Shown: in pieces, positions 4,279-27,893 of the stretch
How the letters are laid out: every line of letters starts with the position of its first letter
Position numbering within the stretch: position 1 is the stretch's first letter
Source of the DNA: Malacoraja senta
Lineage: Eukaryota
Assembly: GCA_038087875.1 (NCBI GenBank)
Contig: CM075988.1
Span: 22,570,001-22,634,000 of the forward strand
DNA length: 64,000 nt
Direction of reading: 5' to 3'
The notes under the pieces: model-generated
What the model saw: the letters and a program-made list of their open reading frames with translations, nothing else
Told to the model about the DNA's origin: nothing
Databases searched by the model: none
Program-made: the position numbers and the translations under genes

Positions 4279-4602
4279 GACTTTTGGATAGGTACGTGGA
4301 TATGCTGGGAATGGGGAGATATGTGCTATGTGCAGGTACATGTTTGGCACAGACACTGTGTTCTTGCGCTGCACTGTTCTATATTCTATGTTCTCAGTGG
4401 AAAGTATTTTGCTACACTCCTGACGGGCTGGCCAATTCCATTCTGTGTCTCGGTTTGCGTTATGGTGTGTGTCACGGATAGCAACAACAATACGTTTCAA
4501 ACCGGTGCCCCACCACACGGTGACTGGATGTGAACCTGCCCGAGTCTGTCCCTAGTTCCCCCCCTTGCTTGACGATAAAGTGACTGAAAACATGAGCCTT
4601 AC

Positions 4603-4614
4603 CTAGTAACGGAT
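4603..4614 (-). CDS. SIDT2: SIDT2 12-nt microexon (ATCCGTTACTAG; adds D-P-L-L after exon 10)
   Basis: Long polypyrimidine tract ...tctctctggcttcAG, donor G|GTAAGG, phase 1-1 matching exon 10; resembles the recalled vertebrate SIDT2 ASLL insert at this position. Confidence 0.75.
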   Translation of the reverse strand: MRY

Positions 4615-4859
4615 CTGAAGCCAGAGAGACCAGCAGCCAAAAAAATACACAAGGAAAAGAATTACTGTTCAGACTCAGCAGCGTGGAACAGAGAAGATAA
4701 ACATGCAACGGAGAAACATGTCGTAGCATTTAGTCTCACTTTGCAGTGGGAGGGTAACTGCCCAGGGGTACATCTTGGGGAGACAGAGAATTACAACGGC
4801 AGACGGGTCCCCAACCTGAAACGCCAACCATCCTTCTTCCCCAGAGAAACAGAGACCAA

Positions 4860-5055
4860 TGCTGAAGATAGACACAAAGTGCTGGAGGAACTCAGCGGGT
4901 CCGGCAGCATCTCTGGAGAAAATGGATGGGCGATGTTTTGGGTCAGGACCCTTCTTGAGTCTGAAGACAAGTCCCGACCCAAAACGTCACCCATCCTTTT
5001 TTGTCCAGAGACGCTGCTTGGCCCGCTGAGTTACTCCAGCACTTTGTGTCTATCT
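4860..5055. mobile_element. Penelope-derived inverted repeat pair
   Basis: Same family as 2812-3056, palindromic arrangement. Confidence 0.7.
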
Positions 5056-5212
5056 GAGAATGACACAAACATTTGTTATACCGTTCTGTGTAACGAGTTC
5101 ACAGGCAGCTCAGGAACAGGGAGACCCGGGGTACATGTACACATTCACCTTCGTGATGGGTGAAGTTCAGAGAGATTCGAAAAATGCATGTGGTCTCTTT
5201 GGTTATAAAACT

Positions 5213-5468
5213 TAGAAACATACAAACATAGAAAATAGGTGCAGGAGGAGGCCATTCGGCCCTTCGAGCCAGCACCGCCATTCATTGTGATCATGGCTGA
5301 TCGTCCCCAATCAATAACCCGTGCCTGCCTTCTCCCCATATCCCTTGATTCCACTAGCCCCCAGAGCTCTATCTAACTCTCTCTTAAATCCATCTAGTGA
5401 CTTGGCCTCCACTGCCCTCTGTGGCAGGGGAGGCCAAGTCACTGGATGGATTTAAGAGAGAGTTAACT
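5213..5468 (-). mobile_element. CR1/HER1-like 3' fragment with a short inverted copy at its 5' junction
   Basis: Tail (atagaaac)n; about 5374-5410 is repeated in inverted orientation at about 5430-5466. Confidence 0.8.
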
Positions 5469-5965
5469 TAAGCCGAGCCATCATAAAGTATTGTGCACAT
5501 TTCAGGGTTGCAGTACTCCAGGAAGAAAGCCAATATCTCAGAGGGAGTAGATAGCAGATAAAGTGGAATATCCCAAGGATGAGGGACATCGGTTCTGCCC
5601 AGAAGCTGTAGCAGGTGAGCCTTGCTAACCTTAAAGGAAAGAGTGTGTCTGTGTTAATGTTCCTGGAGACTCTCAGCAATTGTGTAGGTGGAAGTAGGAC
5701 TAGGCAGTAACACACTAAAGATGCTGTGGGAGTGGCGCCTGGGAGAGATGGCACCTCTCTGCCAGCTCTGCCCAGGACAACACTGGGACCTGCAGACGGT
5801 TGAAGTCCTGGGTCTCTGGAATAACCCCAGCTATACATCGGGGAGTTGGGTTACCTCTCCATGTTAAATCCTCTAGAGACCCAGGCCATGAATGCATGAG
5901 TTTCATCCCTGCAATGTGGCGTGGACTGCAGCCACCGGCATCTCAGTGCAATGCCTGGCAGTCTG

Positions 5966-6277
5966 TTTAGTTTAGTTTAGAGATGCAGCGCGGAAACAGG
6001 CCCTTCGGCCCACCGAGTCCGCACCGACCAGCGATCCCCGCACACTCACATTATCCTATACACACATTAGGGACAATTTACAATTAAACCAAGCCAATTA
6101 ACCTACAAACCCGTACGCCTTTGGAGTGCGGGAGGAAACCGGAGATCCCGGAGAAAACCCAAGCAGGTCACGGGGAGAAGGCACAGACTCCGTACAGACA
6201 GCACCCGTAGTCAGGATCGAACCCGGGTCTCTGGCGCTGCGAGGCAGCAACTCTACTGCTGCGCTACCGTGCCGCCC
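5966..6277 (-). mobile_element. tRNA-derived V-domain SINE, near full length
   Basis: Minus strand reads gggcggcacggtagcgcagc...cccgggttcgatcc (A/B box-like), V core ctccggtttcctcccgcac, and (ctaaa)n tail. Confidence 0.85.
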
Positions 6278-6378
6278 CTGGCTGCACAGGGGAACGTTGC
6301 AAAGACACTCGCAACGCATCATGGATCCCAGCCCTAGGTGGGAACAGGCCGGGAGAATCACAGAAACCACGACAGTAA

Positions 6379-6918
6379 AACCCGTCTCACGGTGCGAGTC
6401 CAACCACGAGTGACCCCGAGTTTAAAACAAATCAAACTCGTGGTAATCACGTAGAATTAACGTAGCGGGAACGTCGGAACTCGTAACGCTAACGGCAGGT
6501 ACTCAGGAAACTTGTTAACTCGTGAAAATCTTTCAACATGATGAAAGATTTCCACGAGTCAAATTTACTCTTGATGTAAACATTTTAACCCATTCCTTCT
6601 CTCCAGAGATGCTGCCTGTCCCGCTGAGTTAAAGAGTGCTCACGGTAGACTCACGAGTCACTACGGTAAACTCACGGGCTACTACGTTCTTACAACGAGT
6701 TTAAACGTTTAACATTTTTACTTCAAGAGTAAATTTGACTCGTGGAAATCTTTCATCATGTTGAAAGATTTTTACGAGTTAACAAGTTTCCCGAGTACCT
6801 GCCGTTAGCGTTACGAGTTCCGACGTTCCCGCTACGTTAATTCTACGTGATTACCACGAGTTTGATTTGCTTTAAACTCAGGATCACTCGTGGTTGGAGT
6901 CGCACCGTGAGACGGCCA
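6379..6918. mobile_element. Fold-back MITE with ~200 bp inverted arms (Harbinger-like; TAA/TTA flanks)
   Basis: About 6382-6590 is the near-perfect reverse complement of about 6706-6915; arm sequence is homologous to the interior of the 15057-15365 MITE. Confidence 0.8.
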
Positions 6919-7010
6919 TTACCAACGCAAGCTGTTTCCCTGTGGAATCTACAGCAACAAAATACACAGATCCATTCTCCAAAGAGAGTAAAGTGATGTT
7001 TGTTAGTTAC

Positions 7011-7066
7011 CACACTGATCCGGAGGTGACATTTTGCACAGGAGTCTCTCCCTTTTGTTTTGCTGC
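7011..7066 (-). CDS. SIDT2: SIDT2 coding exon 10 (R QQNKRERLLCKMSPPDQC), start of the cytosolic loop
   Basis: ttcctcctcAG acceptor, G|GTAACT donor, 56 nt, phase 2-1, basic stretch following TM1. Confidence 0.8.
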
Positions 7067-7572
7067 CTGAGGAGGAATTTGAAAAGCAAGATCACTAAAC
7101 CTGGTCATGAGGCAATGTATCTGAAGGCAGTGCATGCAATCATTTAGTGTAGTTAGTTCAGTTTCATTTATTGTCACATGTACCAAGGTACGTGCTAACC
7201 AGTCAGCGGAAAGACAATACATGGCAGTTTGTGTCCTACCACAACTCGAGAGCAGTGCTGATCTACTATCTACCTCATTGGCGACCCTTGGACTATCTTT
7301 GATCAGACTTTACTGGCTTTACCTTGCATTAAACGTTATTCCTTTATCATGTATCTATCTATCTATCCACTGTAAATGGCTCGATTGTAATCATGTATTG
7401 TCTTTCCGCTGACTGAATAGCACGCAACAAAAAGCTTTTCACTGTACCTCGGTACAAGTGACAATAAACTGAAATGATGACAATCAACCCGTCCAGAGTG
7501 AAGTTACAGGATAAAGGGAATAAGGATAAGTGCAAATGCAGGATAATGGGTATGTTTAGTGAAAATACAGGA

Positions 7573-8100
7573 TAATTTGAGGAAGGACATTCTTGCTATT
7601 GAGGGAGTGCAGCGTAGGTTTACACGGTTAATTCCCGGGATGGCGGGACTGTCATATGCTGAGAGAATGGAGCAGCTGGGCTTGTACACTCTGGAGTTTA
7701 GAAGGATGAGAGGGGATTTCATTGAAACATATAAGATTGTTAAGGGCTTGGACACGCTAGAGGCAGGAAACATGTTCCCGATGTTGGGGGAGTCCAGAAC
7801 CAGGGGCCACAGTTTAAGAATAAGGAGTAAGCCATTTAGAACAGATACGAGGAAACACTTTTTCTCACAGAGAGTGGTGAGTCTGTGGAATTCTCTGCCT
7901 CAGAGGGCGGTGGAGGCAGGTTCTCTGGATGCTTTCAAGAGAGAGCTAGATAGGGCTCTTAAAAATAGCGGAGTCAGGGGATATGGGGAGAAGGCAGGAA
8001 CGGGGTACTGATTGGGGATGATCAGCCATGATCACATTGAACGGCGGTGCTGGCTCGAAGGGCCGAATGGCCTACTCCTGCACCTATTGTCTATTGTCTA
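7573..8100 (+). mobile_element. CR1/HER1-like 3' fragment, (ATTGTCT)n-tail subfamily
   Basis: ORF 7559-8011 matches the CR1 ORF2 C-terminus. Confidence 0.9.
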
Positions 8101-8335
8101 AAAGTTAGAATGAGCAGTGCAAGTCTACAAGGCAGTTTTCAAAAGACATTCCAGTAGAGATCTCTACCAGAAAACAACATCCTTTCCAAGCCCTCAGCCA
8201 GACTGCAGCAAGATCGACACCACACCAGGAAAGGTTACAACATTTTAGTTGCAGTATCCGTGCTATTTTTTTAATAATGGGCCGCAGTAGGATCGCCCCG
8301 TGTGTGAAAGATGCAAACAATTGCAGTGCCGTTAC

Positions 8336-8429
8336 CTGCTGTGCTCCCAGCAAGCGATGAGCAGCGTGAGCAGGTAAAACGCCAGGAAAATGCCCAGGCT
8401 GAAGAGCACCCCTTTGACGTAGGCCAGAG
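8336..8429 (-). CDS. SIDT2: SIDT2 coding exon 9 ([31 protein letters not shown]), first transmembrane helix
   Basis: ttccctcttacAG / AG|GTAACG, 94 nt; matches recalled SIDT2 [28 protein letters not shown]. Confidence 0.93.
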
Positions 8430-9014
8430 CTGTAAGAGGGAACAGAAGTTGCAGGATCAAAATATGGTTCATCGGAAATTAATGTGATATACATATGTGA
8501 CATGGACGTAAACACAGGTGGGTTGGTTAATAGGTTACAAACTTATGAACTCTCTTATCTTTGACTCAGAGCGTTAACTAATGCCAACACAGTAGATCAT
8601 AAGTGATAGGAGCAGAATTAGGCCATTCGGCCCATCAAGTCTACTCCGCCATTCAATCATGGCTGATCCATCTCTCCCTCTGAACCCCATTCTCCTGCCT
8701 TCTACCCATAATCCTCAGATAAGATGTTTTTTTTGGAAAAAACCCATGGTTATAACACTGGATGAGTAATCCAGACACCAGGGCGAATGATTCCTGAACT
8801 TGTGTCATGAGTTCCAATCCCAACAGTGCCACTGGGCAACTTTAAACGGAGAGCAAGAGGCATTGAAGTTTTCACACTTTTGAATTGTCACAAAATCCCA
8901 TCTGGTTCACTCATGTCCTTAAGGAAATGAAATCTTCCATCCTTGAAAAATCAATTGAAAATTAAACTAAAATTTAAATGTTGACTCCAGCACAAAATCT
9001 CTGGCACTTGAAAT

Positions 9015-9330
9015 GTGCAGGAAGGAACTGCAGGTGCTGGATTACACCAAAGATTGACACAAAATGCTGGAGTAACTCAGCGGGACGGGTAGCATCTCTG
9101 GAGAGAAGGAATGAGTAACATTTCGGGTCGAGACCCTTCTTCCTGGAAACAGGCCCTTCAGCCCACTTAGACCACGATACCCGTTCACACTAGTTCTATG
9201 TTATCCCACTCTCCCAACCACTCCCTACATATATACCGTCTGAAAAAGGATCTCGACCCGAAACGTCACCCACTCCTTCTCTCCAGAGATGCTGCCTGTT
9301 CCGCTGAGTTACTCCAGCTTTTTGTGTTGC
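9015..9330. mobile_element. Penelope-derived inverted repeat pair with a SINE fragment in the middle
   Basis: Family sequence in both orientations. Confidence 0.65.
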
Positions 9331-9395
9331 TTTTATAAAGTGGTTGGAGAGATCTTGTCTCCAACCAAGGAAACACTCCAAGCTGAAGTACTTAC

Positions 9396-9461
9396 AATTC
9401 ACAGCTGGCACCACAGTTACAGTCAGAATCTTGCTCCGATTTCCCAAGCCCATTGGCTCAT
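9396..9461 (-). CDS. SIDT2: SIDT2 coding exon 8 (D EPMGLGNRSKILTVTVVPAVN)
   Basis: ctcgtcAG / T|GTAAGT, 66 nt, phase 1-1; similar to recalled [22 protein letters not shown]. Confidence 0.88.
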
Positions 9462-9465
9462 CTGA

Positions 9466-9701
9466 CGAGAGAGAAAGAGAGAGGGAGAGAGGGGGAGAGG
9501 GGGAGGAGAGTGAGAGAGAAAGAGAAAGAGAGAGAAAGAGAGAGAAAGAGAAAGAGAGAAAAAGAGAGAAAAAGAGAGAAAAAGAAAAAGAGGGAAAGAG
9601 AGAGAGAGAAAAAGAGAGAGAAAGAGGGAGAAAGAAAGAGAGAAAAAGAGAGAGAGAAAAAAAGAGAGAGAGAAAAAAGAGATAAAAAAAGAGAGAGAGA
9701 G
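9466..9701 (+). repeat. GA-rich polypurine low-complexity tract (CT-rich on the SIDT2 sense strand)
   Basis: Almost pure G/A for ~235 nt, directly abutting the exon 8 acceptor. Confidence 0.95.
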
Positions 9702-10044
9702 TTTAATTTATTGCCACGTGTACAGTGAAAAGCTTTTGTTGCGTGCCAACCAGTCAGCAGAAAGACAATACATGATTACGATTGTGCTATTCAGTGTACA
9801 GATATATGATAAAGGGAATAAAGTTTAGTGCAAGGTAAAGTCCATCAAAGATAGTCCAAGGGTCTTCCATGAGGTAGATGGTAGCTCAGGACCGCTCACT
9901 AGTTGATGGTAGGACGGTTCAGATGCCTGATAACAGCTGGGAAGAAACTGTCCCTGAATCTGGAGGTGTGCATTTTCACACTTCTGTACCATTTGCCCGA
10001 TGGGAGAGGGGAGAAGAGGGCGAAAGACAAATGCACAATCATCA

Positions 10045-10250
10045 GAAGGAACTGCAGATGCTGGTTTAAACCGAAGGTAGACACAAAATGCTGAAGTAAC
10101 TCAGCGGGGCAGGCAGCATCTCTGGAGAGAAGGAATGGGTGACATTTCAGGTTGAGGCCCTAAGGAGGTTTCTCGACCCGAAACGTCACCAATTCCTCTC
10201 CAGAGATGCTGCCTGTCCCGCTGAGTTACTCCAGCATTTTATGTCTATCA
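10045..10250. mobile_element. Penelope-derived inverted repeat pair
   Basis: Family sequence in both orientations. Confidence 0.65.
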
Positions 10251-10312
10251 TCAGATCGAGGCGTTCCGCAGAGCTGCAACTACAGAAAATCTGCATGTTC
10301 TTTCATCTGTAT

Positions 10313-10765
10313 ATGACTGTCATATGCTACGAGAATGGAGCGGCTGGGCTTGTACACTCTGGAGTTTAGAAGGATGAGAGGGCATCTTATTGAAACGTAT
10401 AAGATTATTAAGGGCTTGGACACGCTAGAGGCAGGAAACATGTTCCCGATGTTGGGGGAGTCCAGAACCAGGGGCCACAGTTTAAGAATAAGGAGTAAGC
10501 CATTTAAAACGGAGACGAGGAAACACTTTTTCTCACAGAGAGTTGTGAGTCTGTGGAATTCTCTGCCTCAGAGGGCGGTGGAGGTCGGTTCTCTGGATAC
10601 ATTCAAGAGAGAGCTAGATAGTGCTCTTAAAGATAGCGGAGTCAGGGGGTATGGGGAGAAGGCAGGAACGGGGTACTGATTGGGGATGATCAGCCATGAT
10701 CACATTGAATGGCGGTGCTGGCTCGAAGGGCCGAATGTCCTACTCCTGCACCTATTGTTTATTGT
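10313..10765 (+). mobile_element. CR1/HER1-like 3' fragment
   Basis: ORF 10335-10679 is the CR1 C-terminus. Confidence 0.9.
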
Positions 10766-10988
10766 AGAGTTACATAGCATGGAAACATGTCCTTCACCCA
10801 ACCCATCCAAGATGTCTATCTGAGCTTGTCCCATTTGCTTGCGTTTGGCCCATATCCCTTTCAACCTTCCCTATCCACGTACCCGCCTAAGGTCCTTCCG
10901 CTGCTGGACATTGAGGGGCAGAGTCTGGTGGGGCACCCCTCATACAAGGGAAGGGATCTCACCCCAGGGGGCTACAAGAGTGGCAAGG

Positions 10989-11555
10989 GCACCTGGAGTA
11001 TTGCGCACAGTTTTGGTCTCCTAATGTGAGGAAAGACATTCTTGCCATAGAGGGAGTACAGAGAAGGTTCACCAGACTGATTCCTGGGATGGCAGGACTT
11101 TCGTATGAAGAAAGACTGGATAGACTCGGCTTGTACTCGCTAGAATTTAGAAGATTGAGGGGGGATCTTATAGAAACTTACAAAATTCTTAAGGGGTTGG
11201 ACAGGCTAGATGCAAGAAGATTGTTCCCGATGTTGGGGAAGTCCAGAACAAGGGGTTACAGTTTAAGGATAAGGGGGAAGTCTTTTAGGACCGAGATGAG
11301 AATTCTTTTTTTCACACAGAGAGTGGTGAATCTGTGGAACTCTCTGCCACAGAAGGTAGTTGAGGCCAGTTCATTGGCTATATTTAAGAGGGAGTTAGAT
11401 GTTGCCCTTGTGGCTAAAGGGATCAGGGGGTATGGAGAGAAGACAGGTACGGGATACTGAGTTGGATGATCAGCCATGATCATATTGAATGGCGGTTCAG
11501 GCTCGAAGGGCCGAATGGCCTACTCCTGCACCTGTTTTCTATGTTTCTATGTTTA
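10989..11555 (+). mobile_element. CR1/HER1-like 3' fragment, (TTTCTATG)n-tail subfamily
   Basis: ORF 11026-11460; tail repeat. Confidence 0.9.
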
Positions 11556-12523
11556 TAGACAGAGCAACCACGACTAAATATAACACTAATGAATGTACTG
11601 TACATACACTGGGAATGGAACAAGAGCTTTAGCACAGTTTTTGTTTTGTGTATGTTTTTAATTCTGAATAAACTGTATTATTGGAAAAAAAAATGTATTT
11701 TAAATGTTGACATTGTCTTTCATTCACTCTACAGCAAAAATCTACTTGCAAAGAACTTGGCAGCAAAAACCAAACTCAAAACCGTGGATAACATTACAAA
11801 ACACTGCCCCGTAGGAAATCTGAAACCAAGACCGAAACGGCTTTTGCCAGCGATCAGCCGTGCAATTGGATCCAACACACCAGGGAGTGTGGGAGGAAAC
11901 CGGAGCACCCGGAGCACCTGGAGGAAACCCACGTGGTCACGGGGAGAACGCACAAACTCCGTACAGACGGTATCCGTGGTTAGGATCGACCCCGCCGTCT
12001 CCGGCGCTGTAAGGCAGCAACTCTACCGCTGCGCCCACCCAGGTTGAATGAGCAAAGTTATATCGTTGCATTAAACGTTGGACCCTTCATCCTTTATCTT
12101 TGCGCAGTCGGTGGCTTGATTGTTCGAGAAGGAACTGCAGATGCTGGAAAATCGAAGGTAGACAAAAGTGCTGGAGAAACTCAGCGGGTGAGGCAGCATC
12201 TATGGAGAGAAGGAAATAGGCAACGTTTCGGGCCGAAACCCTTCTTCATCAGAAGAAGTGCTGGAGAAACTCAGCGGGTGAGGCAGCATCTATGGAGCGA
12301 AGTAAATAGGCAACGTTTCGTTCCGAAACGTTGCCTATTTCCTTCGCTCCATAGATGCTGCCTCTCCCGCTGAGTTTCTCCAGCACTTTTGTCTACCACC
12401 GATGGCTTGATTGTATTCTGTATAGTCTTTCTTTGGACAGCAGGCAAACAAAAGCTTTGTATCTTGGTACACAAATAATAATATTACCAATGTAAACTCG
12501 CCCCCACCTCCCTCTGTTCCTAC

Positions 12524-12623
12524 CTTCTTTCAAGGGGTAAAAGGGCAGGGCCCCTCCACACGCCTCGTCCTCCGTCTTCACCACCACCACCACATAAAAA
12601 CTGCTGTTTCGGAAATCCTTCCG
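12524..12623 (-). CDS. SIDT2: SIDT2 coding exon 7 ([33 protein letters not shown])
   Basis: tcccaacAG / G|GTAGGA, 100 nt; near-identical to recalled SIDT2 [17 protein letters not shown]. Confidence 0.96.
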
Positions 12624-13208
12624 CTGTTGGGACAGCAACAATGCTTGACGATCATGAAAGGCATGGAAGTCATTGCGTTCACTTTACACACAACCTATCA
12701 ATAATGTCTTATTATTATTAATATTAATGTTTAGTGTTTTCTGAGTCATTCGCAACTGTCACTGTTTGTCATGTTGTTACTTGTGGGAGGAGCACCAAGG
12801 CAAATTCCTTGTATGTGAATACTTGGCCAATAAACGTACTTAATTACTTTATAGAGACACCAAAGGTGACCTTTCCATGGTTGGGGAGATATTCCCCTTG
12901 GGTCACATCTGCAACGCTTGCCACTGGCGATATTCCCCTTCTCATGGTTCATAGTTTATGTTATAGCAGCCATTCGGCCCATCCAGTCTACTCTGCCATT
13001 TCAATCATGGCTGATCTATCTTTCCCTCTCAACCCCATTCTCCCGCCTTCTCCCCTTAACCCCTGACACCCGTACAGATCAAGAAGTCAGTAGTCTTTCT
13101 CATAAATAGCTTTGTCAAGATGAATGGAAGTGAAGAAGGGTCCCGACCCGAGACGTCACCTATCCATGTTCTCCAGAGATGCTAGCTGCTCCGCTGAGTT
13201 ACTCCAGC

Positions 13209-13842
13209 CAGGGGCGGAAAACCCGGGGGGCCAGAGGGGACGTCCCCATGTTTTGAGAGGTGGGGGACATCCCCCGCCAAGTTTTTGTGATCCGTATTTT
13301 AAAATCTCCGCTTTCCGCGAGACAGTGGAGGGGGAACTGATGATCGAGGGCGTGATGATTGGAGGAGGGAGGAGTGGGGGGTGGGACTGAGGATAGAGTG
13401 CGGTGATTGGAGGAGGGAGACGTGGCACAGACCTGCGCCTCATCCGCAAGCAGGGTCGATCCCGGCCGGGTCTCCGGCGCTTTCCCGTCCCCACCCGAGT
13501 GCCCTCCCCCACCCCCACCACGGGTGGCCAGAGAGGTCGGGAGTCAGACGCGAGCTGTGCCCCTGAGGCCCACAGCCAGCTCAGAGAAACAGCTCAACTC
13601 TGCCTGTCCTGCCTGGGCTTGCGGTAAATATGGCCAGCGTGGAGAAGCAGCGCTGGTGTCCTGTCAGCCCAGGCAGAGCTGTAGGTTAACCCGGCGAGAC
13701 AGGCAGAGTTGAGCTGCATTAGCGCTGGATTGAGCCTCCGAAGCCTCGCGCGCGTGTGTGAGTGTGCGCGAATGCGAGCGCGGCCGCCAAAAAAATTGTG
13801 TCCCCCGTCCCCTCCATGTTTTGATAGCGAGTTCCGCTCTTG
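13209..13842. mobile_element. Non-autonomous hAT-like DNA transposon, GC-rich
   Basis: Perfect 8-bp TSD ACTCCAGC (13201-13208 and 13843-13850); imperfect TIR CAGGGGCGGAA / TTCCGCTCTTG; inserted into a Penelope-derived repeat. Confidence 0.85.
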
Positions 13843-14094
13843 ACTCCAGCACTCTGTGTCCATGTTCTCCAGAGATGCTGCCTGACCCGCTGAGTTACTC
13901 CAGCACTCTGTGTCCATGTTCTCCAGAGATGCTGGTTGCCCCGCTGAGTTACTCCAGCAACGTATGTCTATCTTCAATGAGAGGCAGCCTGACCACCTCC
14001 TCTTGACATCCATTGGCATTCGCCGCACTGCATTCCCACCAATATCACCACTGACCAGCAAGCTAATTAGACCAACTGTGTAAACACTATGGTC

Positions 14095-14445
14095 ATTAAA
14101 TGCTGGAGTAACTCAGCGGGCCAGGCAGCATCTCTGGAGAGATGGAATGGGTGACGTTTCTGGTCGAGACTCCGCTTCAGACTGAGAGTCAGGGGAAAGG
14201 GAAACGAGAGATATAGATGATGATGTAGAGAGAGAGAGAGAGAGAGATATAGAACAAATGAATGAAAGATGTGTGAAAAAGTTACCATGATAAAGGAAAC
14301 AGGCCATTGTCAGCTGTTTGCTCGGTGAGAATGAAAAGCTGGTGTGGCAGGGGAGGGTGGGGGAGGGATGGAGAGAGAGGGAATGCAGGGGTTACTTGAA
14401 GTTAGAGAAATCAATATTCATACCACTGCGTTGTAAGCTGCAAGC
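14095..14445 (-). mobile_element. Penelope-like element 3' part (end of GIY-YIG ORF to terminal repeat)
   Basis: Homologous to 20244-20822. Confidence 0.7.
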
Positions 14446-15056
14446 TGTAAACGCTATGATCACAAAAACTGATTTGTGGCTGTGTCTCACTGCGGCAGCA
14501 ACTTCACAACAAACTGCTTGATTAACCCCCAATGTTACCACTGCTTTTCAATCAAGATGGATTGGGATCACACTGGAGAAGCAGTGTGAACCAAATACCC
14601 ACTGGGGAAGATTTGAACACGTCCCATCAATATCTGCAATGCTGGCACCACGGGGTAAATGCAATCTTTAGAGAAACCGTGTGGAAACAGGCCCTTCAGC
14701 CCATCAACCATCTCCCTACCAGCACAATCCTACACACTAGGGGCAACTCAAGCCAATTAACCTACAAACCTGTACGTATTTGGAGCGTGGGAGGAAACCA
14801 GAGCACCCGGGGAAACCCCGGCGCAGCGGTAGAGATTCTGCCCTCACAGCGCCAGAGACCCGGGTTCGATCCTGACTAAGGGTGCTGTCTGTATGGAGTT
14901 TGTACCTTCTCCCCGTGACCGTGTGGGTTTTCTCCGGGTGCTCCGGTTTCCTCACACGTGCCGAAGACGCGCAGGTTTGTTGGTTAACTGGCTTTAGTAA
15001 AAGTAACCCTGGTTATTAGTTTAGTAAAACTGCCCCGAGTGTGCGGAATGGTGAAA

Positions 15057-15365
15057 AGGGCCTGTCCTACTGTACGAGGTAATTCAAGAGCTCTCCCCAG
15101 TTAAAAAAAAAAATCAAACTCGTGGTAAGCACGTAGAATGTACGTAGCGGGTACGTCGGAGCTCGGCGACGTCTCTTAGCGGCTCGTAATGCTAACGGCA
15201 GGTACTGGGGAAACGCGGTAAGCTCGTGAAGATTTTGCAACATGTTGAAAAATGTCCACGAGAGCCCCGAGTACCTACGAGCGGCTATTACCGTAATTCT
15301 CCGAGTTCGAATCAGGGGAAACACGGGAGAACTCTTGAATTAGCTTGTACAGTGGGACAGGCCCT
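15057..15365. mobile_element. Harbinger-like MITE inserted in a V-SINE (SINE about 14817-15437, plus strand)
   Basis: TIR AGGGCCTGTCC(T/C)ACTGTAC...GTACAGTGGGACAGGCCCT. Confidence 0.8.
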
Positions 15366-15581
15366 TTAGTGCGCTGGTCAGCGCAGACTCGGTGGACCGA
15401 AGGGCCTGTTTCTGCACTGTATCTCTAAAGTCTAAAGATTGGACCTGTGGGCCAAGGGTGGGACTTCATACCACTACCTCCTGACTAGAAGCAAGGGGGC
15501 TGGCTACCAATTCAGCCAAGGAAGTACACACACTGGTTTTCAACACCAACGCAGGTTACTCATGCAAGCAGTGTAGTTTAC

Positions 15582-15665
15582 CTGTATGGTTATGGCTCCT
15601 TTCTTTGTCATGGTTTGATAGGTACCACTAAACGCGACATTGTTGTCTAGGTCATTGACAGGACA
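15582..15665 (-). CDS. SIDT2: SIDT2 coding exon 6 ([28 protein letters not shown])
   Basis: tttcttccAG / CAG|GTAAAC, 84 nt; SID-1 family motif CPVxDLD...YQTMTKK. Confidence 0.96.
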
Positions 15666-16596
15666 CTGGAAGAAATACAAAGTGACGAACATTAGCAAAT
15701 AAACTCCCAATCCAAAGAGACTCTAGTTTTTAAAGAAGATCCCCAGCTCCTGGCAATTCCACACTTTTAATGCATTCCTCCATACCTTACGATTAATGTT
15801 CTCTAATTTCATAATTTCCGCAATTCTATTTTTTTTCTTACATGGGGAGAAGGAGGAGAATGGGGTTGAGAGGGGAAGATAGATCAGCCATGAATGAATG
15901 GCGGAGTAGACTCGATGGGCTGAATGGCCTAATTCTGTTCCTAGAACATAATAGGAGGCCATTCAGCCTTTCAAATCCCTGCCAGCTCTTAGTCCTATTC
16001 CCATGCTTGTTTCCCTATAATGTATTCCCTCTCGAGTGCCCACCAACTCTCCCCGATTCTCCTTCCACCCGTCTACTGAAGCGTCACAGGAGATCGGGAT
16101 CAATCCCAGGTCCCCGGAACCGGGGAACAGCAGCACTACCTGCTGCACTACTCCGCGCTGTTCAAGAAGCCAGCGACGGGGCACTGGCTGCTCGACTGTT
16201 AACTGGGCAGCACCGAGCTTTGACAAACAGTCAACATTAACTTGGTTAAAAGAACTAGACAACAGGACATATTAACAATAAACACTCCACCTTAAGGAGA
16301 GAAACAAAAATGATCCAGACCCACAAAAATCCAGCCCTCTTCTGCCCGATTTTACAAAAAAAATCATTCACAGCTTGGAATGTTTCAAAACTCACTCTCA
16401 GTGATTACTGAAAGAAAGAGAACTGTATCATTCTCTTTCAGGTGATCTTCTTGTCCCTTTACATAAAATGTTTCAAGAGTCAAGAATGTTTAAATGCCAT
16501 ATGTACCTAATGTGAACGATGAAATTCTTCCTTGCAGCAGCATAACACCTCAGCAAACACAGTATCCAATAGATAATATCATTAAAAAAAAGCTCA

Positions 16597-17222
16597 ATGG
16601 AGTATTATGTGCATTTTTGGTCCCCTAATTTGAGGAAGGACATTCTTGCTATTGAGGGAGTGCAGCGTAGGTTTACAAGGTTAATTCCCGGGATGGCGGA
16701 ACTGTCATATGCTGAGAGAATGGAGCGGCTGGGCTTGTACACTCTGGAGTTTAGAAGGATGAGAGGATATCTCATTGAAACATATAAGATTGTTAAGGGC
16801 TTGGACACGCTAGAGGCAGGAAACATGTTCCCGATGTTGGGGGAGTCCAGAACCAGGGGCCACAGTTTAAGAATAAGGAGTAAGCCATTTAGAACGGAGA
16901 CGAGGAAACACTTTTTCTCACAGAGAGAGGTGAGTCTGTGGAATTCTCTGCCACAGAGGGCGGTGGAGGCGGGTTCTCTGGATACTTTCAAGAGAGAGCT
17001 AGATAGGGCTCTTAAAAATAGCGGAGTCAGGGGATATGGGGAGAAGGCAGGAACGGGGTACTGATTGGGGATGATCAGCCATGATCACATTGAATGGCGG
17101 TGCTGGCTCGAAGGGCCGAATGGCCTACTCCTGCACCTATTGTCTCTTGAAAGCTCTCTCTTGAAAGCATCCAGAGAACCTGCCTCCTCCACCGCCCTCT
17201 GAGACAGAGAATTCCACAGACT
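16597..17222 (+). mobile_element. CR1/HER1-like 3' fragment followed by a short inverted piece (17146-17222)
   Basis: ORF 16597-17064. Confidence 0.9.
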
Positions 17223-17279
17223 CGCAAGAATTATGCAAGACCCTGGCGCGGGACACTGACTCTGATGCTCCCCACTCAC

Positions 17280-17381
17280 CAGAACATCCTGAATCGAGAG
17301 GACGGAACAGGGAAACACGGAATCCGAGGTCACTTTCACGATTACGGACTCCTCACCGTCAGAAAACGTGTACCTAAAGTA
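17280..17381 (-). CDS. SIDT2: SIDT2 coding exon 5 ([34 protein letters not shown])
   Basis: ttcaccctcAG / CTG|GTGAGT, 102 nt. Confidence 0.96.
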
Positions 17382-17455
17382 CTGAGGGTGAACAGGAGGG
17401 AGACAATGATGACATCGTAAACTCATCACAGTAGACATCCCAACTTGACATTAGT

Positions 17456-17687
17456 TTACTTGTGGGTCTGCAGATGTCTGTAGAGGCGGATCCGCGATCC
17501 ACACACCTTGGTGCAACGTGGGCAGTGGAGACTGGCGGTGGTTGGTAGTCGTCGAGCCCCCTTTGACTCCACTGGTGTGTGGATCACGGATCGGCCTCTA
17601 CAGACATCCGCAGACCCACAAGTAGACGACCCTATGGAGAGGGGAGGACGGTCATACTGGTTTCGAGTGACCGCCGACGATGATGAC
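17456..17687. mobile_element. RTE-clade LINE 3' end with inverted 5' segment
   Basis: Minus strand CPRCTKVCGSRIRLYRHLQTHK* (C2H2-like ORF end); plus-strand copy of the same ORF end, 3'UTR and (GAT)n tail. Confidence 0.7.
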
Positions 17688-17699
17688 ATTCGTTTAAGG

Positions 17700-18085
17700 C
17701 AGACTCAAAATGCCGGAGTAACTCAGCGGGTGAGGCAGCATCTCTGGAGAGAAGGAATGGGTAACGTTTCGGGTTGAAACCCATCTTCAGACTGAGAGTC
17801 AGGGGAGAGGGAGACTTAGAGATAAGGAAGGGCAAGGTGTGAAAACACAGATCAATGAGGACGTTGATCAAGGAAATGTAAAATGTTATATTGTTAGCTG
17901 AGGGGAAGGTGATAACGAGGTGTATAATCGGTAATATTTAATCAGGACGAGTCGGAGAACTGGGATGGGGTAGGGACGGAGAGAGAGGGAATGCAAGGGT
18001 AATAGAGTTAGAGAAATCAATATTCATACCGCTGGGGTGTAAGCTGCCGAAGCAGAATATGAGGTGCTGTTCCTCCAATTTGCAA
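17700..18085 (-). mobile_element. Penelope-like element 3' part
   Basis: Minus strand encodes KLEEQHLIFCFGSLHPSGMNIDFSN, followed by the terminal repeat. Confidence 0.75.
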
Positions 18086-18369
18086 CAGCTTCCTGACCGG
18101 GGGAGATAGTCAGAGTGTTTTTCTCCTCTGAGACAAAAACTTCAAATACTTGGGAACATAGAATTAAACGGTGAGGAGGAAAGTTTAAAAGAGGTGTTTT
18201 TTTCCCCCAAACACATTGTATTTTTTAACTCATTGTAGCTATTTTTTTTAAAGTACAAAATCCCACAGCCGCACCACCCGCTGCCCGCTCGGAGACGGTG
18301 AACAGAGGGGAAATTCTCCCTGGAGGATTCTCAGCGCAGGTCCTTACAATATTACGTGTCTGTCCTTAC

Positions 18370-18415
18370 CTGCGGTTGAGACGGCGTTGCGTTAAACTTG
18401 AACGGTTCTGCAGTT
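18370..18415 (-). CDS. SIDT2: SIDT2 coding exon 4 (G TAEPFKFNATPSQPQ)
   Basis: tttatccaacAG / CAG|GTAAGG, 46 nt, phase 2-0. Confidence 0.93.
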
Positions 18416-18590
18416 CTGTTGGATAAATGAATATAAAATGTTTAGGGCATTATTCAGACACGAGTCTCACCAGCTGTTATACAAAATCAAACAGTTTATT
18501 TTGGGCGCTTAGTTTAGTTTAGAGATACAGCGCGGAAACAGGCCCTTGGCCCCACCCAGTCCGCGCCGACCTGCGATCTCCGCACATTAA

Positions 18591-18818
18591 AGGGCCTGTC
18601 CCACTTGGGTGTCATTTGCGCGTCACGCAGGTGGCGCGCGAAGATTTTGTGAATCCCAAAATCCTGGGGCACCGCGCGTCACTGACTATGTCACCACGCA
18701 CCATGCGCGCGTAATGCACGCCATCACGTGCGCGTCACGGCGCGCACGTCGTGCGTTTTGACTCATAAATGATGTCGCGTAAATGACGTGCAAATGACAC
18801 CCAAGTGGGACAGGCCCT
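18591..18818. mobile_element. Harbinger-like MITE inserted in a V-SINE (SINE about 18509-19046, minus strand)
   Basis: TIR AGGGCCTGTCCCACTTGGGTGTCATTTGC, flanks TAA/TTA. Confidence 0.85.
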
Positions 18819-19284
18819 TTACACTATCCGACACACACTGGGAAACAGCTACAATTTTACCGATGCCAATTAACCTACAAACCTGGACGTCTTTGGAGTG
18901 TGGGTGGAAACCGGAGCACCCGGAGTAAACCCAGACAGGTCACGGGGAGAAGGTACAAACTCCGAACAGACAGCACCCCGCAGTCAGGATTGAACGTGGG
19001 TCTCTGGCACTGTAGGGTTGCAACTCTACCGCTGCGCCACCGTGCCGTGTTTGTAGATATATTTTTAAAAGGGAATCAGGAACATTGGGAAAGAAGGAGC
19101 CAGGCCCTTGACTCTGTGCCAGGCCCAGAGTATGATAATGATCAAATCCTGCTACCTGCCACCATTGTACAGGTTTGCTGCACAAAACATTCGCTTGTTT
19201 CCTCTAAAGGAGGGTCCCGACCCGATGAGTCATCTATTCACATCCTCCAGAGTTGCTGTCTGAAGAGCTGAGTTACTCCAGCAA

Positions 19285-19915
19285 AGAGTCACACAACGTG
19301 GATACAAACCCTTCCAGCCACCTTGCCCACACCGACCAACACACCCCATCTACACTAGTCCCACCTGCCTGTTCGTGGCCCAGATATCCTTTGAAACCTA
19401 TCCTATCCGTGTAGCTGTCTAAATGTTTTTTTAAACCTGTGATAGTACTTGCCTCAACTAGTTCTTCCAGCAACTCGTTCCATACCCTGACCACCCTTTG
19501 TGTAAATAAAGTTACCCCTAACCATGATCCTCTGGTTCTCAATTCCCATGCAAGTGACTCTGTGCATTTACCCGATCTATTCCTCTCATGATTTTTGCAC
19601 AACTCTAATAGATCAACCCTCATCCTCCTGCGCTCCAAGGAATAAAGACCTATCCGTTCACTTGTACCAGTTTCCTATTACGGAGACCACAGCAAAATGA
19701 CAGAAGTCTCTGCCTCAGAGGGCGGTGGAGGCCGGTTCTCTGGATGCTTTCAAGAGAGAGCTAGATAGGGCTCTTAAAGATAGCGGAGTCAGGGGATATG
19801 GGGAGAAGGCAGGAACGGGGTACTGATTGGGGATGATCAGCCATGATCACATTGAATGGCGGTGCTGGCTCGAAGGGCCGAATGGCCTACTCCTGAACCT
19901 ATTGTCTATCGTCTA
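19285..19915. mobile_element. CR1 fragments (minus strand about 19285-19655; plus strand 19707-19915)
   Basis: ORF 19273-19638 has FTQRVVRVWNEL; HER1-like 3' end. Confidence 0.75.
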
Positions 19916-19969
19916 AGTCCTAAACCTAATGGACACGGAGTTCTAGCCGATGATACTGCGCCACTTTAC

Positions 19970-20134
19970 CCGAGGATGAAGTGCTTGATGCGTTTGACGT
20001 AGAGTTGGACGGAGGCGTTCTTTTCCGACAGGGTGGAGACATCCACATAGAAGTACTGCATCTGCAATTCACTCTTCACCTCCGATTGACAAAGTGTGCG
20101 ACTCACATCCTGGTAGATGTATTTCCTCTGGTAC
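19970..20134 (-). CDS. SIDT2: SIDT2 coding exon 3 (L YQRKYIYQDVSRTLCQSEVKSELQMQYFYVDVSTLSEKNASVQLYVKRIKHFIL)
   Basis: tctttctgcAG / GG|GTAAAG, 165 nt, phase 2-2. Confidence 0.96.
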
Positions 20135-20243
20135 CTGCAGAAAGATACAGTGAGGCAGGCTACGCCACGACTTAACAGCACGGTAACAGCTTTAGTGAAC
20201 CTCGCAGTGTGTGGGAGAAACCTCGGAGAGAGAGGACCAAGCA

Positions 20244-20822
20244 GCCAGAGTGAAGCCCAACGCAAATTGGAGGAACAGCATCTCATATTCCGCTTGGGCA
20301 GCTTACAACCCAGCGGTACGAACATTGATTTCTCTAACCCTTGCTTTCCCTCTCTCTACATCCCTCCCCCACCCAAGTTTCATTATCGCCCTGTTCAACT
20401 TCACATTCTGTATAACTCATTATCACCCTGTTGTGTTTCGGCTGTTGTAAATAACTGAAGCCTTACACCAAGATAAAGGTCCCAAAGACTTTATTAACTA
20501 CATAGGAAGTACGACTTCACACTTGCACGTCTCTAACTCTAAGGGAACCAGGCAAGGAGGGTTACTGTAAAGCTAGTGGGCGTAACTACAAAAACATGAC
20601 TCATAACATGAGTGACACTGATCTACATCACCTCCCCCACAGCCAACAATGGACCATTGTGGGCTCCGCCTTTCCTTGCTCATCGTTGCTTTTTGCGTAT
20701 CTTTCATTCATCTGTTCTGTGTACCGTCTATATCTCTCCTTTCCCTCTCCCCTGACTCTCAGTCTGAAGAAGGGTCTCGACTTGAAACGTCGCCTATTCC
20801 TTTTTCTTCAAAGATGCTGCCT
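20244..20822 (+). mobile_element. Penelope-like element 3' part: GIY-YIG endonuclease C-terminus, spacer and terminal repeat with hammerhead core
   Basis: QSEAQRKLEEQHLIFRLGSLQPSGTNIDFSN resembles the GIY-YIG end of Penelope ORFs; CTGAAGA...GAAACGTC at about 20764-20791. Confidence 0.75.
20429..20630 (-). mobile_element. Candidate solo LTR (~200 bp) inside the Penelope fragment
   Basis: TGTTGT...ACATCA termini; AATAAA on minus strand; absent from other Penelope copies; no clean TSD. Confidence 0.4.
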
Positions 20823-21940
20823 TCCCTCCATAATCTTTGACGCCCGTATCTATCAAGAACCTTTCTAAACTCCGCTTTAAAAATACCCAACGACTTGGCC
20901 TCAACAGCAGTCTGTGGCAATAATAGCGGCATCAATTATACTGTGAGCGTGCAGGATTTTGAGAGTGACAGAATGGCCAGTAATGGGTCTTTAATTAATC
21001 CGCACGGTACTTTTGAACCTAGTTGCCAGGTCTGAGATGTTTGGATGCCATCAGACTGTTTCTGGTTGAACATGTGGCATTGTTGATGCATTATTCATCC
21101 TGCTCCACTGATGAACTGCTGCAGTTCAAACAGAATATACTTCGTAACAGCCCGAGGCACTAAGGCCTCTTGCCTGCTTTCCAAGGAGCAGAGAGGAGAG
21201 GTTCGTGTGGGAAGCGAGAAAAACTGAAGCGGCAAAGGATTGGGCAGAGCAAGTCAGCCCAACTTGCCCCTGCCGACCAAGATGCCCCCCTCTCAGCTTG
21301 TCCCAGTTGCCTGCCTTTGGCTCTGATCCCTCCAACCCTTTACAATTTTAGACATCGAGACAGGTACATGGATAGGACAAGTTTAGAGGGATATGGGCCA
21401 AACGCAGGTAGGTGGGACTCGTGTAGATGGGACATGTTGGCCGGTGTGGGCAAGTTGGGCCGAAGGGCCTGTTTCCACACCGTAAGACTCTATGACTCTA
21501 TAATGTAATGATTCAGTTATATTTTATTGTCATGTGTACATGGGTACACATATTCTTTGTTTCTGCTTACAACCCGGGAAGAGAAATCAATGTTCATATA
21601 GCAGACCTCACCTGGGCATTTCACAAAGTGTCACCACATATCTGGAGATGGCAAAGTTACAAAAAGCTCCTCCAATAGTCTGATCTTCCCGCAGCGGTGA
21701 ACCGGGCCCGGCGCCAGCACGCACGCGGGATTCTCGGATTTGCATTCACAAAGTATGCAAAGAGTGGTCGCCACTTATAGGGTGCTGGCAAGGTCACAAG
21801 TGTCCCGTTAGGTCCCCATTGTTCCCAAGATTACAAGATGACGGGGGCCCACGGATTAAAAGCAGCACAGGGGGTTTACCAGCGACGGGGAGGGGCGGGA
21901 AGGTGGGCTTACACGGGGGGGGGGCTCTAGCAATACTCAC

Positions 21941-22062
21941 AGTCCCCTGAGCATGAGTGGTGCCTGGAAGGAGACCACCGCTTTCTGCTGCCGGATCACG
22001 AAGAGCACGGGGTTTTTGGCTTGCTCAGAGATAACGTTAACATGGACACGCACCCCCTCTGT
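21941..22062 (-). CDS. SIDT2: SIDT2 coding exon 2 ([40 protein letters not shown])
   Basis: tcccttctgcAG / CT|GTGAGT, 122 nt, phase 0-2. Confidence 0.96.
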
Positions 22063-22284
22063 CTGCAGAAGGGACAGAACACAGTTAATTCACACACACA
22101 CTGAACACTAATCCCTTTCACAGACCACCCGTGGCTTCAGACTCTATCAGCGACAACAGGGGCCCCCACCTTTCTCAACCCTAACAATAGACAATAGGTG
22201 CAGGAGTAGGCCATTCGGCCCTTCGAGCCAGCACCTTTTCGCTGTACCTCGGTGCACGTGACAATAAACTAGTCTGAAACGTCA

Positions 22285-22512
22285 AGGGCCTGTCCCACTT
22301 GGCGATATTTTCGGCAACTGCCGGCATCATTGACTGACGTATCAGGTCAATGAAAAATTCGCGGGGTGTCGACGTATTGGCGCGCGGTGTTTTTTCAAGC
22401 GTCGCAACATTTTTTTTTGTCGCCGCTGGATTTTGAAATGTTCAAAATCTTTTGGCGACACTGATATGACGCCGGCAGTCGCCGAAAAAAATCGCCAAGT
22501 GGGACAGGCCCT
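22285..22512. mobile_element. Harbinger-like MITE inserted in a Penelope-derived repeat
   Basis: TIR AGGGCCTGTCCCACTTGGCGAT, flanks TCA/TTA. Confidence 0.85.
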
Positions 22513-22760
22513 TTACCCATCCTTTATCTCCAGAGATGCTGCCCGACCAGCTGAGTTGCTCCAGTACTTTGCATGTATCGAAACTAAACTTTTCCACACA
22601 GTCAAATACATACCGCAACCCACCGTGGAATGCTTAAAGATACAGCACAGGAACAGGCCCTTCAGCCCACAATGTTCGTGCCGAACATGATGACAAACGA
22701 AATGAATCTCCTATGTCTGCACATGATCCATATCCCTCCATTCCCGACATAGCCACGTGA

Positions 22761-23260
22761 CAATAGACAATAGGTGCAGGAGCAGGCCATTCGGCCCTTC
22801 GAGCCAGCAACGCCATTCAATGTGATCATGGCTGATCATCCCCAGTCAGTACCCCGTTCCTGCCTTCTCCCCATATCCCCTGACTCCGCTATTTTTAAGA
22901 GCCCTATCTAGCTCACTCTTGAAAGCATCCAGAGAACCTGCCTCCACCGTCCTCTGAGGCAGAGAATTCCACAGACTCACCACTCTCTGTGAGAAAAAGT
23001 GTTTCCTCGTCTCCGTTCTAAATGGCTTACTCCTTATTCTTACACTGTGGCCCGTGGTTCTGGACTCCCCCAACATCGGGAACATGTTTCCTGCCTCTAG
23101 CGTGTCCAAGCCCTTGTGCTTGTCTATACATTTCGTAAACGCCACTATCGGATCTGCCTCAGCCACCACCTCTGGCAGCGTGTTCCAGGCACCCATCACC
23201 CTCTGTGTAAAAACAAAGGTGCCCCACACATCAACTTCAAACTTTGCCCCTTTCAACTAA
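22761..23260 (-). mobile_element. CR1/HER1-like fragment (22761-23115) joined to an older CR1 fragment
   Basis: ORF 22846-23256. Confidence 0.85.
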
Positions 23261-25199
23261 AGGCTATGCCGTCCGGTCTTTGCTATCTCCACCCTGGGAA
23301 CGATGTAGGAGGATACTCCTTTTAAGGGCGTGTGGGTGTCCGGTGGGCCTTCAGGCTGCGGACATAGTCTGCTGAGAACATTTTTAATTTTCGAACAAAA
23401 GTACCTCAATATTATTAAGGTCTCACCGACACCCCACACGATGTTCAGCTCCCAGATGAGCAGGGGAACCACGGGAAGAAGCACGATTTTCATTAACACC
23501 CAGTGTTAGGGCTTTAAAGGTTATGGGGAGAAGGCAGGGACAATGGCTTTGAGAAGGAAAAATAGATTAGCCATGATGGAATGGCGGAGTAGACTGGATG
23601 GAGCAAATGACCTAATTCTGCCCCTGTATCTTATAGACTATTTACTTAACTACTTATCTTATATTTCAAAGAACATCCCAGTGTTAATCAATTGCAAACG
23701 AGAGAAAAGGCAAATGTTACGTATCCTGCCCGTGTCACCTCCACACTTCTATTTGAATGGATTTTTTGTTTGTATATTATATTATCTCTTGAGTACTACA
23801 TTACAGACCTGTGATGCTGCTGCAAGTAAGAATTTCATTGTTCTGTTTTGGTACAAATGATAACTAAACTCTCGACACCTCTCTTTTTCTGAAAGACTGG
23901 AACACGAGTCGATGTGGGACTGACTAATGTGGGCGAAATTCCTTCCAACTACTGTGGCCTTCATTGCTGGCTCAACTGTGGAGAGAGTTTTATTTTTAGA
24001 GATACAACGTGGAAACAGGCCCTTCAGCCCACCGAGTCCGTGCTGACCATTGCACACCCGTACACTAGTTCTATCATACACATGAGGGACAATTTACAGT
24101 AGCTCACCGCACTTGTGCACTTGACAATAAACTCGACTTGTCTTGAAGTGTGAAGGACAAGTTTAAATTCTGTGTAAACAGATATCAAATCTCAATAATA
24201 GAAATCCTCGCTAAGTAACTCTTGGTTCATAAATTAAAGGCGCATGTATGAAATGGTTCATGTATGAACAAAAAAACAAGTTATAAGGTCATAAGGAATA
24301 GGAGTAGAATTAGGCCATTCGGCCCATCAAGTCTGCTCCACCAATCAATCATGGCTGATCTATCTCTCCCTCCTAACCCCATTCTCCTGCCTTCTCCCCA
24401 TAACCTCCAACACCCGTACTAATCAAGAAAATCAAGTTTGGGACGATATTCTTCCACAACTGTGCTGAAAAAAAATTAATGCCCCAGATGTTTAAAAAAA
24501 TAAAGTAAAGATGTTATTTCCGATTAAAGTTGTTTAACAATTTTAAAGTAAAACAAATTTAATTTAATTTGCTCAGATATTATTGCAGGGTTTATACGCG
24601 CGTGACCAAATCAGAAGCCAAGGCCTCTGGAAGTCTAGTCCAACAGCAGAACCATTGTCTTGTGAATTGCTGAGGACTTTACAACAAAATTAATAATCTC
24701 AGATTAAACAATCCCAACATACATTACCAGTTTCACACGTTATTGGAGTAGAATTAAGCCATTCGGCCCATCATGACTCCGTCATTCATCATGGCTGATC
24801 TCTGCCTCCAAATCCCATTTTCCTGCCTTCTTCCCATAACCCTTGACACCCATTCTAATCAAGAATTTGTCCACCTCAGCTTTAAAAATATCTACTGACT
24901 TGGCCTCCACAACCCTCTGTGGAAATGAGTTCCACAGATTAACTACCCTCTGACTAAAGAAGTTCCTCCCTTTAATTCTGAGGTTACAACTGCAATGAGT
25001 TATTCCAGCACTTTGTGTCTATCTTCAGTGTAAACCAGCATCACCAGTTCCTTCCTACACATGGCCAAAGATTACTGGGAAAATTCACAGTGCTGCTGCC
25101 TTGCTTTGAGCTCAATGCTGTCCGGCACGTCCCCAGAGACCAACGGGACAGTGAGGGGGCGAAGATGCAGCACCTGGGAATCCCATGCAAAAGGTAATG

Positions 25200-26799: not shown

Positions 26800-27034
26800 G
26801 CGCTTACAACCCAGCAGCATGAATATTGAAGATATATAGACACAAAATGCTGGAGTAACTCAGCGGGACAGGCGGCATCTCTGGAGAAGATCCTTCTGAA
26901 GAAGGGTTTCGGCCCGAAACGTTACCTATTTCCTTCGCTCCATAGATGCTGCTGCACCCGCTGTGTTTCCCCAGCATTTTTGTGTACCTTCTTCAGACCA
27001 GACTGATTTCTCTAACTTCAACTAACCCTTGCTT

Positions 27035-27074
<40 letters not shown>

Positions 27075-27660: not shown

Positions 27661-27862
27661 GCCGGACGCTATCGGATCCGGGTTGCATGGATCGGCCAAC
27701 CCCTTGCTTCCGGGGCCGCCGCCGCCGTTACTGTCACAATAACAGCATCGGTGCTCGTCTTGTGATTTCACCAAATGAGTGGGAGTGGGGGGGATGGGGG
27801 GGATGGGCGGCCAAACTTGCAATTGCCAGATGGAAATAGGAGCAACAGCAATAAGTTAAACA

Positions 27863-27886: not shown

Positions 27887-27893
27887 AAAATAC

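Follow-up and report, generated by a model that had tools for sequence, protein, structure and literature searches.

Can an exon of 12 nt add a sorting signal to the lysosomal RNA transporter SIDT2, and is that signal then present only in the spliced-in form? The question is raised by the region G000:C12:22,570,001-22,634,000 of the 1.94-Gb genome of the skate Malacoraja senta. We refer to this whole stretch of 64,000 nucleotides as the window, and positions are window positions unless they carry a contig name. A sequence-only reading of the window had proposed that a microexon on the minus strand switches on a dileucine signal in the cytosolic loop after TM1 of SIDT2.

The SIDT2 locus and the microexon

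We first give the evidence for the identity of the gene. A profile search of the genome with the SID-1 family domain (PF13965) matched nine exons at this locus. Among the best candidates scored, the matches of this family were confined to the SIDT2 locus and no separate SIDT1 locus was seen. With Amblyraja radiata SIDT2 X1 (P0138), the nearest named protein, as tblastn query we placed the SIDT2 exons on the minus strand, from position 28157 to ~36 kb left of the window, and over their cores the exons were mostly 90-100% identical to skate SIDT2. SIDT2 sequences from the PDB outscored SIDT1 against the locus; for the 30-aa query of exon 9 we found no PDB match. The domain matches, the identity to skate SIDT2 and the order of the PDB scores confirm that the gene is SIDT2. 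The last coding exon of PAFAH1B2 (44504-44740, minus strand), a neighbour expected for SIDT2, lies upstream on the same strand.

The window contains the 5' part of SIDT2 with exons 1-10 and the microexon (4603..28157, minus strand); the remaining exons lie to the left of it. Exon 9 (8336..8429, minus strand) encodes TM1 and is joined to exon 10 in spliced contigs. Exon 10 (7011..7066, minus strand, 56 nt) is covered by such contigs in 4/4 runs. Exon 11 (72 nt, G000:C12:22561354-22561283) lies outside the window, 13.2 kb downstream.

The microexon ATCCGTTACTAG (4614-4603, minus strand) is a cassette exon of phase 1-1 that adds D-P-L-L between exons 10 and 11. Each of the elements from which it had been recognised is present on the minus strand. 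The 3' splice site (4615..4664) consists of a pyrimidine-rich zone of 48 nt free of AG (4664-4617, 75% C/T over 40 nt) and a cAG acceptor, with a UGC at -21..-19 (4633..4635, minus strand) that is a candidate SRRM3/4 element. The 12 nt end in TAG and are followed by the 5' splice site GTAAGG (4597..4602, minus strand). The phase and the in-frame fit to exon 10 (7066-7011) were equally correct, and with its canonical splice sites, its length and the preserved frame the exon falls within the definition of a microexon (3-27 nt). As exon 11 starts with CGG, the included product reads MSPPDQC-DPLL-AGSYNSQ and the skipped product MSPPDQC-AGSYNSQ, both of which are open; the residue after the leucines is thus Ala, and the Gly that had been predicted there (DPLL-G) has to be corrected. 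The only match to the yTnAy branch point consensus near the acceptor was TTTAT at -84.

We then screened 114 kb on both strands with a strict filter: frame-preserving exons of 3-27 nt, an AG-free zone of at least 30 nt, at least 65% pyrimidine and a G/GTAAG donor, all thresholds having been set after the exon had been seen. The filter retained 2 of the 204 loose candidates, namely the 12-nt microexon and the 3' terminus of a genuine SIDT2 exon. In simulated introns we encountered any strict candidate in 5/200 cases and a 12-nt xxL[LI] candidate in 0/200. The 24-nt string of acceptor, exon and donor occurs a single time in the genome.

Several other characteristics of the locus were noted. The intron upstream of the microexon carries an inverted repeat (6375-6922) with arms of 214 nt that are 94% complementary and 120 nt apart. 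It is MITE-like and, judged by read pile-up, repeated elsewhere; an RNA hairpin formed from it could affect splicing. Exon 13 (G000:C12:22557414-22557528) measures 115 nt where 116 are needed; near DSDK an A-run lacks one base for the reading frame of relatives, which is likely an assembly error. In intron 12 (G000:C12:22557529-22558813) we found no match to the 57-63-nt alternative loop exon of sharks, teleosts and mammals, an exon that was possibly lost in skates and that is hepatocyte-enriched in mouse liver according to the accessible part of the source. In several sharks (P0170, P0180, P0140, P0181) exon 11 begins with two additional residues (VS). Comparison of the sequences suggests an acceptor 6 nt upstream in these species, and there is no AG at this distance from exon 11 in the Malacoraja senta genome.

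Homologous isoforms and optional use

The 12-nt exon is real, and it is the homology of isoforms, as judged from the alignments, that is decisive. RefSeq X isoforms are predicted models for which read support was not seen; among them, pairs that differ solely by the four residues of the microexon were detected in four cartilaginous fishes. These are Amblyraja (X1/X2, 865/861 aa), Scyliorhinus canicula (X1/X2, 862/858 aa), Stegostoma (X2/X3, 858/854 aa, with Pro at -4) and the chimaera Callorhinchus (X1/X2, 847/843 aa, with DPLI as the insert). Included forms are also present for Chiloscyllium plagiosum and Carcharodon. At the same junction we observed ASLL or VSLL in teleosts, coelacanth, frog, birds and cat, and Carassius has pairs with and without the insert. 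Of 125 retrieved proteins that have the loop anchor, 32 carry the insert. The sequence-only reading had named such an insert for mammals and teleosts and had taken the microexon to be ancient. The isoform alignment supports both points: in bony vertebrates the junction reads [E/D]x-[AV]SLL, and the insert occupies the same junction from cartilaginous fishes to mammals. The exon itself is already annotated and hence not new: RefSeq models contain it, and so does a table of human splicing events.

Assembled sequences add a full-length fish protein of 827 aa that includes the insert (P0118; 6 contigs, each of at most 3,028 nt); in some fish runs the major path of the assembly contains the exon. 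A search with the skate loop among short proteins assembled from sequencing runs gave 12 candidates, none of them at E <= 0.01. The listed isoforms of the rays and sharks Mobula, Hemitrygon, Hypanus, Leucoraja, Rhinoraja, Pristis, Narcine, Heterodontus, Hemiscyllium and Heptranchias show no insert; as these isoform lists are partial, this does not amount to absence.

For skates, spliced contigs join exon 10 straight to exon 11 in 4/4 runs (two studies, two related organisms), with a single contig per run that extends from exon 9 through exon 10 into exon 11. As the contigs are spliced they derive from RNA, although two of the runs had been guessed to be DNA. Inclusion was seen in 0/4 of these contigs, and contigs drop minor variants. 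The SIDT2 exons had no coverage in X6 or in the raw reads of X24 (~6% read), from which nothing follows for expression. In human a 12-nt SIDT2 exon is located at chr11:117186989-117187001 between exons of 53 nt and 72 nt (PMC12714141, in part). These flanking lengths match the 832-aa sequence around PES/GHP, and the position is orthologous to that of the skate exon. The inclusion of the human exon rose by a dPSI of +0.189 (FDR 0.003) in HNF1A-knockout EndoC-betaH3 beta cells, and a knockout of A1CF gave a non-significant +0.084 (PMC12714141, in part). Together, the skipping contigs (4/4) and the human orthologue, which is a regulated cassette exon, show that the microexon is optional, as had been proposed.

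In the sources seen, the human exon appears just as a row of a table or in a predicted isoform, and no function is assigned to it. Other reports concern different exons. The Sidt2 exons in the accessible part of a mouse-liver paper are 63 and 69 nt long and hence are not the 12-nt exon, and PMC9402578 deals with an alternative promoter. The accessible part of a dendritic-cell splicing paper does not specify the Sidt2 exon in question, and that of PMC4836006 does not mention the 12-nt exon.

Which factor regulates the splicing is a separate matter, compatible with a dileucine signal. The exon had been proposed to be a neural microexon controlled by SRRM3/4, and it resembles these targets in several respects: it is a frame-preserving exon in the range of 3-27 nt, it has a strong donor and a UGC between the pyrimidine tract and the AG, it is deeply conserved and it belongs to a trafficking-related gene. 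Such a UGC is found in 74-79% of the SRRM3/4 microexons (bioRxiv 2024.09.17.613571, in part). The UGC does lie between the branch point and the AG here, though it is weakly diagnostic: a TGC at -30..-6 occurs in 10/24 of the other SIDT2 acceptors (13/24 if TGCAG is counted). AG-free zones of at least 45 nt occur at 9/24 of them. A further point in favour is HsaEX0058265, an event of unverified gene and length whose PSI in MCF7 was 38.1 and reached 76.6 when SRRM4 was active. This was one match among 4 neighbouring IDs tried; it lies two numbers below the 63-nt SIDT2 exon HsaEX0058267 and is bracketed only by SHROOM1 (58241) and SIDT2 (58267). However, the file that lists it spans six cell lines and a comparison with neurons, and the event appears there once, for MCF7. 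A UGCAUG hexamer at -93 (4702..4707, minus strand), a candidate element upstream of the microexon and presumably of the RBFOX type, also counts against SRRM3/4. Unlike established targets, SIDT2 is not named among the 314 SRRM4 targets in HEK293 (PMC7935315; 18/19 files, the gene-named cell-line list lying outside these), among the 708 zebrafish neural exons (PMC12626424, 12 files) or in the retina microexon tables (PMC9303857, 18 files), and the human exon is partially included in a beta-cell line, which is non-neural. With TGC common in the gene and SIDT2 missing from three published lists, neural regulation by SRRM3/4 is so far not supported; a neural or endocrine SRRM3/4 target is a possibility that we take seriously while leaning slightly against it.

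The motif across the splice junction

To compare the loop with and without the insert we used a panel of 36 proteins, one of which was dropped as it had no anchor. The remaining 35 divide into 15 with and 20 without the insert, and since many are related the 15 represent about eight lineages rather than independent cases. In all 11 included forms from outside the elasmobranchs the loop has a single [DE]xxxL[LI], which arises through the insert, whereas this motif occurs in 0/20 of the forms without the insert. The proposal that the exon toggles a dileucine motif is thus borne out for these proteins. The motifs are ECDPLI in the chimaera, ETVSLL in the coelacanth, ETASLL in the frog and in six teleosts, DTASLL in the bird and ESASLL in the cat. 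They span the junction: exon 10 supplies the acidic residue, with its second-last full codon, and the microexon supplies the leucines. All these rows keep E or D at -4 in exon 10. The first two residues of the microexon vary (D/A/V and P/S), and the sole change in the last two is L to I, which is also the only one that the motif allows.

The elasmobranch forms deviate from this pattern. The acid at -4 required by a strict [DE]xxxL[LI] is missing in 4/4 included forms, among them the copy of Malacoraja senta, and the position is taken by Gln or Pro; all four have Asp at -5, Pro at -1 and the LL pair. The last codons of exon 10 provide positions -5 to -3 (D-Q-C), so the Malacoraja senta copy has Asp-5, Gln-4, Asp-2 and Pro-1. 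The sequence-only reading had called this motif non-canonical. That the acid is missing at -4 is correct, but it is a lesser problem than had been feared, as the chimaera has the canonical E-C-D-P-L-I and the variants are published as tolerated or favourable. In a screen of CD8 chimeras an acid at -5 was nearly as good as one at -4, Gln at -4 was tolerated with a slight loss of strength, and endocytosis was at least doubled by Pro at -1 (PMC2882754, in part). Given that published variants tolerate the missing acid, the skate motif is expected to work like a [DE]xxxL[LI] signal still. The elasmobranchs lost the acid at -4, and we predict that the retained Asp-5 and Pro-1 compensate for it.

Signals of the form [DE]xxxL[LI] are bound by AP-1, AP-2 and AP-3 (PMC2882754, in part). 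The SIDT2 motif shares with these signals the L-L/I pair, the upstream acid, the location in a flexible cytosolic loop and, in cartilaginous fishes, Pro at -1. It differs in that the candidate signal is assembled by splicing and, for the skate copy, in Gln-4 and the Asp residues at -5 and -2. The placement in a cytosolic loop after TM1 agrees with the cryo-EM work, where the TM1-TM2 loop is cytosolic, flexible and not resolved (PMC10272179, in part). The first Leu of the pair lies 25 residues past the end of TM1, and the pair is therefore found in a cytosolic, flexible and membrane-distant region. A motif of the GGA type (DxxLL) places its Asp at -3. We rejected it as Asp is at -2 rather than -3 here and the site is internal. 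Another LL is constitutive and located in exon 10 (7030-7040), 12-13 residues after TM1 and 13 residues nearer to the membrane, with basic residues upstream. It was found in most jawed vertebrates of the panel and is possibly a second, non-acidic leucine signal; its wide occurrence is a point against the proposed role of the microexon.

Proposed sorting effect and competing explanations

Comparing these sequences we consider it on balance probable that the 12-nt exon completes an acidic dileucine signal with predicted binding of AP adaptors. SIDT2 reportedly carries YxxPhi motifs for lysosomal targeting, a finding that is ascribed to Contu in 2017. Dileucine signals use a site on the adaptors that is separate from the one for YxxPhi. 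Inclusion would thus give SIDT2 a second kind of sorting signal, a dileucine site in addition to the YxxPhi motifs. The included form may be internalised faster or routed more directly to lysosomes or lysosome-related granules; for the skipped form a comparatively longer stay at the plasma membrane or in endosomes would be expected. The candidate signal lies in the same loop as the YxxPhi motifs and the same adaptors (AP-1 and AP-2) are predicted for it, whereas the YxxPhi motifs are constitutive and present in the skipped form of 832 aa. SIDT2 is reported to be sorted by AP-1 and AP-2 via these motifs, with YGSF as the binder (PMC12684396 and 10.1101/2023.07.24.550379, both in part), and the 832-aa form already reaches lysosomes via three of them (10.1101/2023.07.24.550379, in part). 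As the skipped form arrives there, inclusion would probably tune trafficking by degrees instead of switching it on or off.

There are several other possible explanations for the exon. The four residues may serve a purpose other than sorting, for example by tuning access to the nearby YGSF as a spacer or a hydrophobic contact, in RNA binding, in dimer contacts or as a modification site, and the dileucine match would then be incidental. The RNA-binding region does belong to the same loop, which may be situated at the dimer interface (PMC10272179, in part); the loop holds several other alternative exons, and the elasmobranch forms are without the acid at -4. However, a spacer needs neither a fixed L-L/I beside variable first residues nor an E/D kept at -4, and we regard a role of this kind as unlikely. 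The motif could also bind adaptors and yet be redundant with the tyrosine motifs, in which case inclusion would have no measurable consequence and the exon would persist as a low-level variant. This would agree with the lysosomal localisation of the skipped form (in the part of the source cited above), with the skipping of the exon in all four skate contigs and with the many rays that have no annotated included form. Inclusion is nevertheless the major assembled path in some fish (P0118) and is regulated in human beta cells. In addition, the sequence and length of the exon have been kept from chimaera to mammals, which implies selection and argues against redundancy; we consider it quite improbable. 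A pseudo-exon, decayed or never used, in the Malacoraja senta genome can practically be dismissed: the inclusion junction was not observed in the skate contigs (0/4), but contigs drop minor variants, the splice sites are intact and the peptide is identical to that of annotated included isoforms from one skate and three sharks.

A completed dileucine signal invites comparison with another 12-nt exon, that of L1CAM, which we take to be the 'RSLE exon' and whose signal is presumably tyrosine-based. Both are frame-preserving cassettes in a cytosolic region that complete a motif across the junction and are found vertebrate-wide. In contrast to L1CAM, the SIDT2 motif is a predicted acidic dileucine in a multi-pass lysosomal protein that has other sorting signals in both isoforms. 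For the L1CAM family the alternative microexon completes an AP-2 sorting signal (PMC7821500, in part). If true, the SIDT2 exon would add a dileucine example beside this tyrosine-type case of sorting switched by a microexon. A link between the 12-nt SIDT2 exon and sorting was not found in the literature searched, with key subscription papers and VastDB lying outside the search; the exon is known and its reading as a dileucine switch appears to be new within that scope.

SIDT2 has been reported at lysosomes and at the plasma membrane, and its functions in RNA uptake, dsRNA export and lipid hydrolysis are debated (PMC12684396, in part). The protein is also of interest for the delivery of oligonucleotide drugs. 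The exon is absent from 4/4 of the SIDT2 sequences in the PDB that matched the loop, and as the solved sequences are without it, conflicting results on localisation and transport may partly reflect the choice of isoform. A dileucine signal built by splicing would offer a cheap and direct test of whether isoform choice sets the localisation of SIDT2. The divergence of the jawed vertebrates dates back ~450 million years. We tentatively suggest, with some doubt, that over this time the exon might have switched the dileucine signal on and so set by cell type how much of SIDT2 resides at the plasma membrane as opposed to lysosomes or secretory granules, and hence whether it acts in the uptake of extracellular oligonucleotides or within lysosomes.

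The constitutive motifs themselves vary among skates. YGSF reads YGSC in exon 11 of Malacoraja senta and of two further rajid skates, Amblyraja and Leucoraja, whereas Rhinoraja, rays and sharks keep YGSF. From their sequences, these rajid skates have apparently lost the AP-binding YGSF sorting signal. In the same three species FLYV replaces the mammalian YLYV. With YGSC and FLYV in place of the tyrosine motifs, an optional dileucine signal would weigh more in these skates, and if the proposed effect on sorting is true they would depend most on the exon.
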